DNA of 64,000 nt from Aequorivita sp. (GTDB lineage: Bacteria; Bacteroidota; Bacteroidia; Flavobacteriales; Flavobacteriaceae), in contig JBLXCF010000008.1 in the NCBI GenBank assembly GCA_048265145.1, positions 67,570 to 131,569 of the forward strand, read 5' to 3'. The position numbers and the translations under genes were made by a program. The notes beneath the pieces are model-generated. The model was not told where the DNA came from and searched no databases. It worked only from the letters and a program-made list of their open reading frames with translations. Below, one piece after another: positions 53,129 through 58,706 of the stretch (position 1 is the first letter of the stretch; every line of letters starts with the position of its first letter).

Positions 53129-53770
53129 TTACGCAACTGTTACAGAACCTAAATAAGCGTTATTGGACACTTTAGAACCATCTTCGGAAATAAACCCTAA
53201 GAACACCTCCACATCTTCGCCGGTATATTCAGGTGGTACTGAAATACTTTCTGTTCCGGCTGACCTTGTTGGTCCAGCGGTGGTAAATACTACTTCTCCT
53301 CTTGTCCCGTTATAGAGCAAAATCAAAGTTTTGTCTGTTACCATTGCACTTCCACTGCCTGAATTGTCAGTCCAGTTAATGTCAACCGTTGATGCGACTG
53401 TGGAAGCCGCGGCACCGCCAACTACTCCGGTTAGATTACCACGGGTTACCAAAGCGTTTCCATAGTCAATGGAATAGTTAGGATAGGATCCTGTTACTCC
53501 ATTGTACAAGTTGTAAGACATTGCAGCATTGAATTGGGTCATCTTGTTTGCATACAATTTGAAACCAACCCGTAGGAAGTCTGTCATAGGTTGCAGGAAA
53601 CGAAGCACGGTTGAAAACTTTGAGCGCTGGTCAACTTGTCCTTCGGTTTTGGGGTTCGCTACGCTGGAAGGTTTGATTCGTAGGTAATCGATGCCCTTCC
53701 AGGTCCCACCGATTACATTCCCGATTTTTCCGGATACACCGCCGAGAATACCTTGATTGATGATTGCCAT
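53129..53770 (-). CDS. DUF6266 family protein
   Basis: N-terminal G.LGG.SGK.GNV.G..WKG, NP.T..Q..QR.KF and L...G.L motifs, C-terminal SN..Y.G; recognised from memory. Confidence 0.8.
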   Translation of the reverse strand: MAIINQGILGGVSGKIGNVIGGTWKGIDYLRIKPSSVANPKTEGQVDQRSKFSTVLRFLQPMTDFLRVGFKLYANKMTQFNAAMSYNLYNGVTGSYPNYSIDYGNALVTRGNLTGVVGGAAASTVASTVDINWTDNSGSGSAMVTDKTLILLYNGTRGEVVFTTAGPTRSAGTESISVPPEYTGEDVEVFLGFISEDGSKVSNNAYLGSVTVA

Positions 53771-54432: not shown

Positions 54433-54723
54433 TTAATGTCGCAGTTCATTTGCTTTTAATTGTGCGATTAACTCTTTTTTGTTGTAATACCGTCTGTTGC
54501 CCAAACCGTAACATTTAATTTTTCCTTTGTTAGTCCATTGCCAAAGGGTTGAGGAATTGATTTTTAGAAAATCAGCTGCTTCTGTTCTGGTCAGAAAGAC
54601 GTCCACTTGGCCGGAATGTAAATCATCTAAATAATGTTTGATTTTTTGCAGCAATTTTTCTGCTACAATATCTGTTAACTCGTCAACGTATACTTCTGTA
54701 ATTTCGATTGTTCGCGCTACCAT
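54433..54723 (-). CDS. Excisionase-like (HTH_17/MerR-like) DNA-binding protein
   Basis: LTRTEAADFLKINSSTLWQW..KG.I..Y..G.RRYY, typical of Bacteroidota integrative elements. Confidence 0.85.
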   Translation of the reverse strand: MVARTIEITEVYVDELTDIVAEKLLQKIKHYLDDLHSGQVDVFLTRTEAADFLKINSSTLWQWTNKGKIKCYGLGNRRYYNKKELIAQLKANELRH

Positions 54724-54960
54724 TTCTTCTGAATTAAGGTTTCTTAAATGTAAATTTTCCTGTTACGAGAAAAAAAAGAACTCCCTAAAAAGGGAGCTCT
54801 GACAATGAAAGCTCTAGCCAAAAGAGCCGAACGGTATAATCTACAACACCGCAACGAACCACGCCCGCAAAGAAAGGACGACCTGACAACCGAACGCCCG
54901 CCAACAACCAACGGCTGCCACAACGGACTGAAAACAATGATTTGTACATAAATGAAAGAT

Positions 54961-55125
54961 TTAAATTAAACAAAATGCCGCACCACAGGATCGGTGCGAT
55001 TGACGCAAGGGCTGTGGACAAAAAATACTACCCGATAGGGTGGAGATTTTTTTTCCAACAGGCGAAGCGAACCCTTGCGGCTCTCGCATCCGCACGCCTG
55101 TACCTTTGCTTTTTGTTTGAGTTAA
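54961..55125 (+). promoter_or_regulatory. Long hairpin 2, candidate single-strand (Frpo-like) promoter
   Basis: Arms pair: AAACAAAA with TTTTGTTT, ACAGG with CCTGT, GGTGCGA with TCGCATC, CGCAAGGG with CCCTTGCG. TACCTTTG (55101-55108) lies across a 6x6 bubble. Confidence 0.62.
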
Positions 55126-55334
55126 TTCTTCTTCCGAAATTCTATTCGGTGGATTAATTGAAGTATTTTAATCCTAAAGAGTTAAGATATTTGTGCCATT
55201 ATAAAACACATAAAAACGATGAAGGCCACTATCAATATTTTGACCTATAACGGACTGTCGGTATCAGTTTTATAAACACCTTCTTCATCCTTTGGGAAAA
55301 GTAAATAGTAGAAATCTTCAAATAGACTTTTCAT
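55122..55334 (-). pseudogene. Possible decayed small membrane protein gene
   Basis: MKSLFEDFYYLLFPKDEEGVYKTDTDSPL*VKILIVAFIVFMCFIMAQIS*... reads in one frame with two internal stops. Confidence 0.35.
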
Positions 55335-55748
55335 CGGTTACTAAATTACTAAAAATATGGAAACGTAAATGTGCGCAAACGCAGGTAAACTAGCGTAGCT
55401 ATAGTGGAAGCACGCAATGGAGAGTAATGGAATGGAGTGCTGGAACTATAAAGCGAGCCGCCTGCGAGCGGAGCAAGGGTGGTGGCTGCAGAAGCCCGAG
55501 GAAGGAGGGCGGCAGACGCCTACCGTTTACGGCAGGGCTGGCGCGATTTTTTGCTTCAGCGGCGGAAAAGGCAAGTGTGGCGTTTGAACGAAACGAAGCG
55601 GTGCCGGAGCCGTAATGGAGCAATGCCTAAAGAGTTACAATTTTGATGAGTGTTTTGTTTCGTTTATTAAGTTAAAAGTTAATTGAAGTAGACATTGGGG
55701 CATTGCGAAATGGAGGTACGAAGGCTCGCGCAGTGTAGTGAAATAGCC

Positions 55749-56317
55749 ACTCTTGTGTGCGTTGCTGAAAGTGGGTGATTGTAGAGAGAGAGGCACGAAC
55801 GAACGAAAAGAACCTACTGAAAGCAAATGGCGGATTGCAAAAAACGTGACAGCCCGATCAGCCCGCAGCGACCCGCAGGCTCGCACAATTAACAAGTGGC
55901 GGCAGACCCCCAATTAAAAAAGTGGTGAGCGGAGCGAACACCTTATCGGGGTTTGGGGGGATGGAGTAGCCACGGGTGAGGAAGGAGAGTAGCGTGTGAA
56001 GCAAAACAAGTGAACGGCAGGTGGCGAGCACCCACTGGAGCGCAAGGCACCTGGTAAGTGAACGGTATATGCAAGGGCGACCGCAGGGAGTTCATTTTAC
56101 CCTTGCAGATATGTTTTTGCGGAACAAAGCGGAACGACTGACGAACACCGCTTTACCTGCGTTGGGATGTGCGTGGGGAAAAGCAAGGGTGCGACTGATT
56201 GAGGTGGAGAGTAACGGAACCGATTGAAGGAGTACTCTTGCTGCGCGTTGCTGGAAGTGGGTGATTGTAGAGAGTGAGGCACGAACGAACGTAAAGAACC
56301 GACTGGAAGCAAATGGC
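55749..56317 (+). repeat. ~84-bp imperfect direct repeat, 2 copies (55749-55831 and 56234-56317)
   Basis: Shared core GTGGGTGATTGTAGAGAG.GAGGCACGAACGAACG; about 6-7 differences counted by eye. Confidence 0.9.
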
Positions 56318-56419
56318 TGTGCGGTGGGTTTTTTTCCTTAAATTGGAATCATCTAATTCCGCTATAGAAGGAATAAGGTTAGCTTTAGTGGTGAGGAAAT
56401 TAGGGTCAGTATATTAAGC

Positions 56420-56790
56420 ACAATAATACAATATGATTAGTGATGTTAAAACCAAACTGGAAGTTCAACCAATGGTTCAATAATTAATGATAATGCAATT
56501 AATGGTTCATAAGAAAAAGCAGAAACGGCAATGGCTAATGAAATAGGTGAATTTCTTGCCGTAGTAGTTAATGTCAGGCTTACCCTGTCTGAATAGCTAA
56601 ACTTTAGGGATTTGCCTGAGGATTTGACCAATAATAAATATCACAATGAAAAATATCAGTAGAGGAATGAGCAATTTATAAATGACATCTGGGTTGTCTA
56701 TTAAGTTTTTGATGCGAACATAGCAACAACCGCTAGAGCAAGGAACATTTTTTTCGTTCGAGAAAAACAATCTTTTTGAAGCCAAGATAA
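56420..56790 (-). pseudogene. acr3: ACR3/SBF-family arsenic-resistance transporter, 3' fragment with frameshifts
   Basis: Three frames give FLALAVVAMFAS / NLIDNPDVIYKLLIPLLIFF / SLTLTTTARNSPISLAIA...EPLVELPV. Confidence 0.75.
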
Positions 56791-56801
56791 GTATGCGGAT
56801 G

Positions 56802-58706
56802 TTATAAATCCTTCCGTTGTATTCTCACAGCATTCAATATAGCCAAAAGAGCTACACCCACATCTGCGATAACGGCTTCCCATAAAGTAGCAACACCGCC
56901 TGCACCTAATGCAAGTACTATAATTTTGACTGTCATAGCGAGAATGATATTTTGCCAGACAATGTTTTTGGTGATTTTACCCGCCTTTATTGCTGCAACG
57001 ATCTTTGACGGCTGGTCGTTTTGAATAACTACATCTGCTGTTTCGATGGTGGCATCACTACCGAGACCGCCCATTGCAATACCAACATCGGCGAGGGCAA
57101 TAACCGGAGCATCGTTAACACCATCGCCTACAAAGGCCAATTTTACTCCTTCTTTTTTAAGAGCCTCCACTTTCTCCACTTTTTCGTCCGGAAGCAGTCC
57201 ACCATAAGCTTCATCAATTCCCAAAACTTTTGCCACCTGATCTACCACTGTTTGTTTATCACCAGATAACATTACGGTTTTTATGTTTAGACGGTGCATT
57301 TCCTTGATGGCCTGATATGCATCTTCCTTTATTTCATCGGCAATAGTGATATAACCGGCGTACTTATTATCAATGGACAATACCACTATGGTATCTACAA
57401 TCTGTTCGACTTCGGCAGGATAAGCTATGTCATATTTCTTTAAAAGTTTAAGGTTTCCAGCCAATACTTCCTTATTACCAACGATGCCTTTCAAGCCGTG
57501 TCCTGCTATTTCTTCAATGTTTGAAGTTTGTAGGCCTTGGTGTTTATTATCGGCATAATCCGTTACAGCTATGGCTATGGGATGGGTCGAGTTCTTTTCC
57601 AAAGCTGCTGCTACTTTGATCAGTTCTTCTTTTTCAATTCCTTCGGATACTACTTGCTGAACTTTAAAGACCCCTTTGGTCAAGGTGCCTGTTTTGTCCA
57701 TCACCACTGTTTTTACTTGGGTCATAACATCCAAATAGTTTCCGCCTTTGAACAGGATTCCATTTCGGGAAGCAAGGCCGATACCTCCAAAGTAGCCCAG
57801 AGGTATGGAAACAACCAATGCACAGGGACAACTGATCACCAAGAATACCAAGGCACGATAAAACCATTCCCGAAACACATAATCATCCACAAAAAATATT
57901 GGGGTTACACAAAGTGCCAGTGCAAGGAAAAATACGATTGGGGTATATACTTTGGCAAAACGGGATATGAAGAGTTGGGTCTGTGATTTACGTGCGGTGG
58001 CATCCTGTACCATTTCCAAGATTTTGCTGAGTTTACTATCCCTAAACAGGGCGGTTACCTTTACTTCTGCAAGTGTATTTTGATTGATCATCCCGGCCAG
58101 TACCTGTTCACCTTTATATTTGGTATCTGGTTTGCTCTCCCCTGTTAATGCCGCAGTGTTGAAAGAGGCTTTTTCAGAAATGAGATCACCATCCAAGGCA
58201 ACCTTTTCACCAGGTTTCACTTGTATCTTTTCTCCTATTTCTACTTCTGAAGGATGTATAACCTGTGATTTTCCGTTTCTTAGAACGATAACTTCATCAG
58301 GCCTTATATCAAGCAAGGCTTTAATGCTTCTTTTGGCGCGCTTAACTGCCGAGTCCTGAAACCATTCGCCTATTTGGTAAAATACCATTACGGCAACACC
58401 TTCTTCATATTCTCCAATGATGAATGCGCCGATTGTTGCCACACTCATCAATACAAATTCATTGAAGAAATCGCCTCTTTTTGACTTTCGCCAAGCGAGA
58501 TCTAAAACTTTTCTTCCGGCGAGAAGATAAGCAATGAGGTTAATTGCCAATAAAGGTATAGTGGGTATGTCGAGGTTAAACCCATATTCCAATGTTAACA
58601 GTATAACCAAAATCAGCAAGGCAAGCAGAAGGTCCCAGTGGGTTTTCCAGCCTGTTTTTTCTTTATTAACTTTTGGGCTTAAGGGCCGGGATGTAGCTGC
58701 TTTCAT
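56802..58706 (-). CDS. cadA: P1B-type heavy-metal ATPase (Zn/Cd/Pb, CPC type) without an N-terminal metal-binding domain
   Basis: TGES, SCPCAL, DKTGTLT and GDGVNDAP motifs. Confidence 0.9.
   Translation of the reverse strand: MKAATSRPLSPKVNKEKTGWKTHWDLLLALLILVILLTLEYGFNLDIPTIPLLAINLIAYLLAGRKVLDLAWRKSKRGDFFNEFVLMSVATIGAFIIGEYEEGVAVMVFYQIGEWFQDSAVKRAKRSIKALLDIRPDEVIVLRNGKSQVIHPSEVEIGEKIQVKPGEKVALDGDLISEKASFNTAALTGESKPDTKYKGEQVLAGMINQNTLAEVKVTALFRDSKLSKILEMVQDATARKSQTQLFISRFAKVYTPIVFFLALALCVTPIFFVDDYVFREWFYRALVFLVISCPCALVVSIPLGYFGGIGLASRNGILFKGGNYLDVMTQVKTVVMDKTGTLTKGVFKVQQVVSEGIEKEELIKVAAALEKNSTHPIAIAVTDYADNKHQGLQTSNIEEIAGHGLKGIVGNKEVLAGNLKLLKKYDIAYPAEVEQIVDTIVVLSIDNKYAGYITIADEIKEDAYQAIKEMHRLNIKTVMLSGDKQTVVDQVAKVLGIDEAYGGLLPDEKVEKVEALKKEGVKLAFVGDGVNDAPVIALADVGIAMGGLGSDATIETADVVIQNDQPSKIVAAIKAGKITKNIVWQNIILAMTVKIIVLALGAGGVATLWEAVIADVGVALLAILNAVRIQRKDL

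Follow-up and report, generated by a model that had tools for sequence, protein, structure and literature searches.

What kind of element is the GC-rich block of about 1 kb at positions 55378-56330 of a 64,000-nucleotide (nt) stretch of Aequorivita sp. DNA (contig JBLXCF010000008.1)? We call this whole stretch the window; coordinates refer to it unless prefixed, the genome it comes from is G000 with contigs C8 and C20, and other G- and L-numbers denote the genomes and loci that were compared. As judged by sequence comparison, the block represents a single member of an uncatalogued family of intricately folded elements of 0.5-1.1 kb, found throughout the phylum on integrative islands of Bacteroidota. 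Its GC content was 0.52-0.575, versus 0.32-0.35 in the flanks, and both the GC skew (+0.17 to +0.43) and the AT skew were positive within it, which amounts to a purine excess on the + strand. The longest open reading frames (ORFs) spanned 92, 74 and 71 amino acids (aa) on the - strand and 68 aa on the + strand, no ORF inside the block matched Pfam, and homologues differed by insertions and deletions (indels) and by compensatory changes, not codon-wise. A preliminary description of the window had called the region 55380-56330 purine-rich and free of any credible ORF, and these data agree with it on both points and on the span: homology with other loci started sharply at 55378/55381 and ended at 56316-56330. 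Two parts were distinguished between these borders, a core (55378-56163) and a tail of 146 nt (56179-56324), which we call module C. That the block is a decayed protein-coding gene, or that its structure arose by chance in biased sequence, has next to no probability. Low-complexity ORFs of up to 92 aa are all that could be put forward for such an origin; neither the ORFs nor the Pfam search held a trace of a former gene, and indels that ignore codons and phylum-wide conservation with covarying helices (see below) argue against it.

The family was found to be widespread and patchy. Homologues with 69-92% identity were present in 13 of 60 relatives, and in an order-wide sample they occurred in 19 of 401 genomes and 13 of 106 genera. 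A genome collection with one genome per species was scanned with a degenerate 23-nt pattern taken from a conserved island of the core (island B; see the table), locus counts being those of the matches listed. The pattern matched at least 118 loci, all but a few of them in Bacteroidota, and the matches listed came from Flavobacteriales, Cytophagales, Bacteroidales, Chitinophagales and Sphingobacteriales. Nearly all of the matches listed had a 3' anchor (GAACACC...CCTG) 220-360 nt further on. The closing helix of the core, P1, could be placed in 80 loci among the matches listed, giving a core of 480-1071 nt (median, 742) that varies in size through hairpin insertions in loops. Copies from different orders were up to 97-99% identical, with 98.8% identity between a Bacteroidales metagenome-assembled genome (MAG) and Algoriphagus, which shows that the carrier islands have recently moved from one order to another. 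No matches were found in 72,556 plasmids, nor in phage records and IMG/VR. One Rickettsiales MAG record (L119) contained a core 100% identical to a Cryomorphaceae MAG copy, and its contig is probably mis-binned Bacteroidota DNA.

Searches with Rfam 15 gave no match at gathering scores in the 64-kb window, only chance-level matches at E values up to 10 over 54700-56900, and no match among the elements of 16 diverse loci. GOLLD, ROOL, OLE, group I/II introns, RNase P, tmRNA and HEARO were rejected as identities because no Rfam 15 model matched, and there was no covariance-model match to a group II intron or RNase P. Literature searches turned up no relevant work on DUF6266 or DUF6943, on ornate RNAs in Flavobacteria, or on promoters of the single-stranded-DNA type in Bacteroidota.

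A consensus structure was derived with RNAalifold from 18 alignable homologues, and covariation was compared with that in 500 column shuffles and in controls in which the pairing partners were slid by 1-3 columns; the sequences tested are related, and the structure was derived from the same alignment. The consensus contained 176 pairs in 36 helices, with 91.6% of the cells in standard pairs. Changes on both sides were found in 67 of the 176 pairs, compared with 32.7±3.6 after shuffling (0 of the 500 shuffles reached the observed number) and 26-40 after sliding, and the covariation score was 0.210, versus 0.114 for shuffled and 0.03-0.065 for slid alignments. The architecture is nested, with P1 enclosing a 5' arm, a helix between two conserved islands (A and B), two local hairpins and the domains D2, D3 and D4. 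The multi-branched structure that had been proposed is therefore upheld; covariation, the lack of which had been named as grounds for rejecting it, was abundant in the core, in P1 and in module C.

P1 was the best-supported helix. It consists of 12 bp whose strands lie 762 nt apart, and 60 distinct versions of it were found across the phylum. Its registers occurred as different base pairs (TA:44/AT:14, AT:52/TA:7, AT:40/TA:18, GC:55/AT:4 and CG:34/AT:10/GC:2), and outer extensions of up to 16 bp had unrelated sequences. Immediately 5' of P1, the 68 distinct 5' flanks shared the family consensus ..TGYGG(G)AAACG, and the leader motif GTGCG(G/T)TGGG was repeated between the core and module C and again 3' of module C.

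The 5' arm is optional, being absent or swapped for a short hairpin in L007, L015, L032-34, L054 and L012. Where present, its triloop stem covaried (AGC/GCT, GGC/GCC, CGC/GCG) and the N of the loop was variable. GCCTGCG of island A (55460-66) pairs with CGCAGGC of island B (55874-55880) in a long-range helix (helix 3/4), whose covariation support is weak because both strands are mostly invariant. D2 includes a long arm, whose AT-rich loop (55627-55699) varies so much that it is unalignable among homologues, and an internal copy of module C with helices 55571-55581/55746-55756 and 55762-55776/55812-55826. D4 contains the long-range helices 55976-56006/56115-56148, an inner arm (56010-56063) and a hairpin (56065-56112; GCAAGGG...CC-GCA-GG...CCCTTGC), and the N of its CC-GNA-GG loop was C, A or T across homologues. 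Each arm of module C carries GNA/GNA internal loops or tiny GC-NNN-GC hairpins, and compensatory changes were found in 16 of its 31 predicted pairs. A cross-type MAFFT alignment of 41 diverse 3' domains was of insufficient quality to judge covariation: it predicted only 39 pairs, of which 18 changed on both sides, versus 15.8 in shuffled alignments. As for the individual stems listed in the preliminary description, TATAGT/ACTATA and TGCAAGGG/CCCTTGCA were correct, and the latter covaried from GCAAGGG/CCCUUGC to ACAAGGG/CCCUUGU. GCAGGT/ACCTGC (56016-56161) was mispaired: ACCTGC at 56156 pairs with 55381 in P1, and GCAGGT at 56016 is unconserved. Neither the consensus structure nor covariation supported GCCGCC/GGTGGC, ACGCC/GGCGT or AAAGCGG/CCGCTTT.

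The strand that folds was assessed from wobble pairs. Among the pairs predicted on both strands, 32 showed G·U and 15 showed A·C (53 versus 25 by cells), and in module C the counts were 37 for G·U and 3 for A·C. Single pairs often showed a G-C / G·U / A-U series, and the folding energy was -268 kcal/mol for the + strand and -216 kcal/mol for the - strand. P1 by itself had no asymmetry between G·U and A·C, and a count of 157 G·U versus 21 A·C was set aside as biased, the + strand alone having been folded. The excess of G·U over A·C shows that folding takes place on the purine-rich + strand. The element thus has a covariation-supported, multi-domain structure on one strand, as a large ornate non-coding RNA (ncRNA) does.

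Table. Features of the element and its immediate borders, in window coordinates
Feature	Position	Strand	Remarks
G/T-rich leader (aaatGTGCGCaa)	55366-55377	+	Position matrix of 68 distinct 5' flanks
P1, 5' strand (AACGCAGGTAAA)	55378-55389	+	Perfect 12-nt complement of 56152-56163
Optional 5' arm: mini-hairpin AGC-GTA-GCT (55392-55400) and TATAGT/ACTATA stem with purine-rich loop	55391-55450	+	
Conserved island A (GCGAGCCGCCTGCGAGCGGAGCAAGGGTGG)	55453-55482	+	Nearly invariant in all members, distant ones included
Two local hairpins: 55481-55520 with purine-rich loop; 55523-55532, CCG-TTTA-CGG	55481-55532	+	Helices 5-8; 9/15 pairs change on both sides
Domain D2, closed by GGCTGGCGCGATTTTTTGC / GCAAAAAACGTGACAGCCC	55535-55855	+	Helices 9-18
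Conserved island B (AGCCCGCAGCGACCCGCAGGCTCGCA)	55856-55885	+	Source of the scan pattern; variable only at the N of CGNAG
Domain D3 (GTGGCGGCAGACCCCC ... GGGGGGATGGAGTAGCCAC), two small inner hairpins	55896-55973	+	Helices 19-20; 7/14 pairs compensatory, 98-100% of cells paired
Domain D4	55975-56149	+	Helices 24-36
P1, 3' strand (TTTACCTGCGTT), invariant GAACACC just before	56152-56163	+	
G/T-rich linker (GGGATGTGCGTGGGGAAA)	56164-56181	+	Kept as GTTGGGG.GTGCGTTGGGAAAAGC in the 50/78 distinct cores with module C next
Module C, two arms (~56182-56242 and ~56247-56313)	56182-56313	+	31 predicted pairs
3' G/T-rich tail (ATGGCTGTGCGGTGGG) and T run	56314-56330	+	Right homology border in G005 and G050

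Module C follows the core in 50 of the 78 distinct cores and also occurs as free-standing copies. The inner part of D2, where the internal copy spans 55565-55835, is paralogous to it, and this relationship accounts for a direct repeat of 76 nt (92% identity, spacing 486) between a copy in D2 and 56242-56317. The differences between the two repeat copies are accounted for by the free N of symmetric GNA/GNA internal loops. A diversity-generating retroelement, with the repeat of 76-84 nt as its template and variable repeats (TR/VR), was rejected: there was no reverse transcriptase among the neighbours, both copies are non-coding, and the repeat differences at A sites fall at the N of GNA loops. 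A third copy was found in G000 at C8:138702-138847 (146 nt), 15 kb downstream and outside the window. Homology stopped at 56316-56328 in L005, L007 and L015, and other genomes ran on into the same cargo.

In G000, G028, G013 and G026, metal-resistance cargo of 11-16 kb was bracketed by two direct module C copies with 86% identity; in G000 this cargo runs from 56330 past the end of the window to the copy at C8:138702-138847. Differences in cargo among genomes fell exactly at G/T-rich GTGCGGTGGG borders, a hint that insertion or recombination takes place at these borders. The bracketing copies and the border motifs, together with short direct repeats in the element (GCGAG twice and CCCGCAG twice), could be read as the marks of a double-stranded-DNA element in which the fold is incidental, such as an iteron origin or, at the cargo junctions, an array of sites for protein binding or recombination. 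We consider this very improbable, since duplex sites would give neither compensatory changes hundreds of nt apart nor an asymmetry of G·U over A·C.

The Aequorivita element is present as one full copy in an integrative island of ~38 kb beside mnmE (C8 ~120,600-158,900, corresponding to ~53,030 to past the end of the window). Read along the - strand, the island has, in order, a tyrosine integrase (C8:157237-158331), a DUF6617-like protein, a helix-turn-helix (HTH) protein, BT4734-like and DUF3987/PriCT_2 primase-helicase proteins, a type I restriction-modification system, a Piwi-domain Argonaute (703 aa) and GmrSD, followed by a module C copy, the metal-efflux cargo, module C plus core, HTH_17 and DUF6266; the integrase and the primase lie just outside the window. 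Across genomes, the element family is part of the backbone of an island that carries a tyrosine integrase, an Xis-like HTH protein, a BT4734-like and DUF3987/PriCT_2 primase-helicase, DUF6266, DUF6943 or HTH_17, and variable cargo for metal resistance and defence. Over ~80 loci among the matches listed, the conserved neighbours were DUF6266 (42 loci) and DUF6943 (39 loci), and ArsR, MerT-HMA and CDF genes were cargo inserted at the element borders. DUF3987/PriCT_2 proteins were found in 6 of 13 carriers, compared with 3 of 47 genomes that lack the element (Fisher p = 0.002). The primase gene was on the element's contig, 10-30 kb off, in G000, G005, G013, G028 and G050, the last of which has two primases and two elements; such linkage to an element-encoded primase is shared with primase-specific single-strand initiation (ssi) sites. 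PF03432 relaxases were absent from 7 carrier genomes, and 9 of 10 carriers had no match to the Bacteroidota TraG (TIGR03783). A single TraG-like fragment was found in the 10 carriers, at C20:27-1211 of G000; it scored below the cut-off and lies at a contig end, and G000 may contain a conjugative element that was assembled only in part.

The comparisons establish that the element folds and on which strand, that it is built of modules, that it ranges across the phylum and that it is linked to islands. By its predicted structure, the block represents the gene, or at any rate the template, of a large strand-specific folded nucleic acid of the island backbone. Our preferred interpretation, held with middling confidence, is that the + strand is made as RNA and that the family constitutes a new class of large ornate structured ncRNA. 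We infer the RNA nature from the size, the closed, nested multi-domain plan, the frequent G·U pairs, the A-rich loops, the variation in size through hairpins inserted in loops and the position of a GC-rich island in AT-rich DNA, and from the lack of a demonstrated single-stranded-DNA phase, a relaxase being absent from 7 carriers and TraG from 9 of 10. G·U made up ~6-7% of the paired cells, and some G·U pairs were present in 17 of 18 sequences. Unpaired positions contained 38-42% A, 30-32% G, 17-21% U and 9-10% C, an A-rich, C-poor composition that resembles that of ribosomal RNAs (rRNAs). Because no promoter or terminator flanks the element, the RNA would be excised from a longer transcript. 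It would consist of the multi-domain core of 0.5-1.1 kb closed by P1, usually followed by the two-armed 146-nt tail, and might provide a scaffold on which proteins of the island backbone assemble, or else regulate how the island is replicated or maintained; the numerous exposed GNA and GGA-rich loops would be its contact sites. GOLLD, ROOL and OLE are likewise 0.5-1 kb long, have many-helix, multi-domain, covarying folds, form GC-rich islands and are of unknown function, and GOLLD and ROOL also reside on mobile DNA. The element differs from them in matching none in sequence or structure, in having no copies in phage records or IMG/VR, no GNRA tetraloops and no recognisable transcription signals, in being confined to Bacteroidota integrative islands, and in possessing a repeatable sub-module of 146 nt.

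Several observations weigh against an RNA, foremost among them the loops. Dense GNA mini-hairpins had been noted in the preliminary description, and the counts bear this out: C-GNA-G hairpins with stems of at least 2 bp numbered 87 in 23 members, versus 22 expected. GCGNAGC was found 66 times on the + strand of 51 non-redundant elements, versus 11.2±3.4 expected, and 12 times on the - strand, a six-fold enrichment in which all four bases were used at N (T16/C12/A19/G19); its density was 1.39 per kb in the elements, versus 0.17 per kb genome-wide. The same heptamer, d(GCGNAGC), is the classic hyper-stable DNA mini-hairpin. The suggested comparison of loop classes showed no conserved GNRA or UNCG tetraloop, with 4 GNRA loops closed by C-G versus 14 expected. 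In 23S rRNA of the same genus, which served as a control, the counts were 18 versus 8.3 expected for GNRA, 6 versus 2.2 for UNCG and 17 versus 14 for GNA. Transcription signals were also lacking. No Bacteroidota -7 box (TAnnTTTG) was present within 60 nt upstream of P1 in the 68 distinct flanks; TTTG does occur 4-5 nt ahead of P1 in a handful of GCAGGTAAT-subtype members, in numbers too small to use. An intrinsic terminator after the core or module C was found in 2 of 73 loci, versus 3 after shuffling, and no hairpin precedes the T run of the 3' tail. Finally, in the window, as in most loci, the flanking genes are all encoded on the other strand from the fold. This last argument is weakened because the loci share one backbone and because in some of them the fold is co-oriented with adjacent DUF6266-like or DUF5675 genes, so that co-transcription is possible there.

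The GNA loops are the best argument for a fold at the DNA level, and they lead to an alternative that we regard as possible but unlikely, in which the element is a folded single-stranded-DNA site in the replication of the excised island, serving the island's PriCT_2/DUF3987 primase-helicase. The exposed + strand would fold into the core and the module C copies, keep single-strand-binding protein (SSB) off and offer the GTGCGGTGGG linkers as starts. The symmetric GNA/GNA internal loops with a free N, the absence of GNRA/UNCG loops that sets the element apart from 23S rRNA, and the absence of promoter and terminator signals are all consistent with this, as is the co-occurrence of the primase on the same contig. 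In addition, a relative of PriCT, the helix-bundle domain of the pRN1 primase, recognises GTG as a template motif. The primase link is tempered by the variable cargo between the primase gene and the element, and the co-occurrence may mean only a shared backbone. Frequent G·T wobbles, some of them in 17 of 18 sequences, and the RNA-like, A-rich unpaired composition speak against DNA, and the tiny hairpins also have non-GNA loops (TAA, CTT, TTC, TTTA).

Among known sites, such a DNA element would resemble the RSF1010 signals ssiA/ssiB or the complementary-strand origins of phages Ff and G4, which are likewise strand-specific non-coding folds of primase-linked mobile replicons with small stable hairpins; the Ff intergenic region, too, is ~0.5 kb long with several hairpins, but the element would be far larger than the ssi and origin sites themselves. 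Each of those sites consists of one hairpin of 40-150 nt or of a loose set of independent hairpins, with no long-range closing helix. For the element, no single-stranded-DNA stage has been demonstrated. To our knowledge, no ssi-type or Ff/G4-type site has been described in Bacteroidota, and we know of no single-stranded DNA with a conserved fold of 0.5-1.1 kb that is closed by a helix whose strands are hundreds of nt apart; the lack of precedent for so large a closed fold counts against the DNA alternative. Should it hold, which we doubt, the element would be the largest conserved single-stranded-DNA fold yet seen, a loading and priming platform made for the most part of d(GCGNAGC) mini-hairpins and GNA/GNA zipper loops, and the free 146-nt modules would be extra priming sites beside the cargo.

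A more specific DNA function had been suggested by the TAGCGT hexamers, which match the CS-6 motif of ssoA origins, and by two upstream hairpins thought to belong to the same single-stranded-DNA-phase module. We find it quite improbable that a conjugative or mobilisable element carries the block on its transferred strand as a single-strand origin or promoter of the ssoA or Frpo kind. The synteny with the two long hairpins is real and extends to nearly all homologues, in the window the neighbouring genes have the folding strand as their template strand, as at Frpo-type sites, GNA loops are present, and the identity between the Bacteroidales MAG and Algoriphagus copies shows recent horizontal transfer by some route. 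A conjugative single-stranded-DNA phase is unsupported, however, with PF03432 in 0 of 7 carriers and TraG missing from 9 of 10, so that the searches gave no sign of the leading region of a conjugative or mobilisable element. In several loci, the conserved neighbours lie on the strand of the fold. Inspection of the 3' arms of P1 and module C revealed neither TAnnTTTG nor TTTG-N19-TAnnTTTG, that is, no -33/-7 boxes, and the element is multi-domain and not one long hairpin as in Frpo. The module C copy at C8:138702 lies upstream of a gene for which a separate -7 box, TATCTTTG, is present.

The ssoA link likewise failed. TAGCGT is indeed present at 55391 and 55990, and the element shares with ssoA a non-coding, orientation-specific, imperfectly palindromic structure, but the hexamers are not conserved: homologues have AAGCGT, AAGCGG or AGGCGA at the first position and AAGCGT, CAGCGT or AGTGTG at the second. 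Nor is there a rolling-circle replicon, the island having an integrase and a primase-helicase, no Rep and no plasmid match. At 0.5-1.1 kb the element is 3-6 times larger than ssoA, and it occurs in a different phylum. Of the original choice between a single-strand origin or priming region and a large structured ncRNA, the conserved strand-specific fold is compatible with both alternatives, and it is the ssoA and conjugative versions that fall away.

Few bacterial non-coding elements are of such size and complexity, namely rRNAs, group II introns, RNase P, OLE, GOLLD and ROOL, and each earlier large ncRNA opened structural and functional work. The present family, which neither Rfam nor the searchable literature contains, is common across Bacteroidota and crosses orders on islands with metal-resistance and anti-phage cargo. 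If it is RNA, as we favour, it would be a new ornate class tied to integrative islands and not to phages. If it acts as DNA, it would change ideas of selectable single-stranded-DNA structure and of how island primases find their starts. In either case, it marks a poorly described island backbone of integrase, primase-helicase, DUF6266 and DUF6943.

A number of minor observations were made around the element and its relatives. In L002, the locus of the free-standing module C copy at C8:138702-138847 (L002 1501-1646), the 131-aa gene to the left of that copy has its own canonical Bacteroidota -7 box (TATCTTTG; L002 1433-1500) between the module and the ATG, and module C is therefore not needed as a promoter there. 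Upstream of P1, a remnant of a small gene, truncated to ~28 codons (MKSLFEDFYYLLFPKDEEG...), lies on the - strand at 55250-55334, and the intact start of that gene (MKELFEDFYYLIFPRDEE) was found ~45 nt left of P1 in L108, L109, L157, L119 and L121. The sequences TTAATTGAAGTA and CCTAAAGAGTTA... of the unconserved spacer (55154-55191) recur in the AT-rich loop of D2 (55626-55690) with their order swapped. A C/A-rich stretch at 54880-54945 (CAACCAACGGCTGCCACAACGGACTG), just left of hairpin 2, is kept as CAACAACCACCGGCTGCCGAAACGGACTCTGAATAA in many distant loci.

The DUF6266 protein (53129-53770) had no PHROG or PDB sequence match. Its AlphaFold model (pLDDT 72, pTM 0.70) began with a disordered, Gly-rich and basic arm (residues 1-39), continued with a helical hairpin (43-91) and ended in an FN3/Ig-like beta sandwich, and Foldseek gave FN3 matches at E ~1e-4; this sandwich is uninformative on RNA versus DNA binding. 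In other loci, a 252-aa DUF6266 paralogue, paired with DUF5675, takes the place of DUF6266 on the opposite strand. In Cecembia rubra (L081, 1941-2022), a tRNA gene lies ~0.7 kb from the DUF6266-like island end and is probably the integration site.

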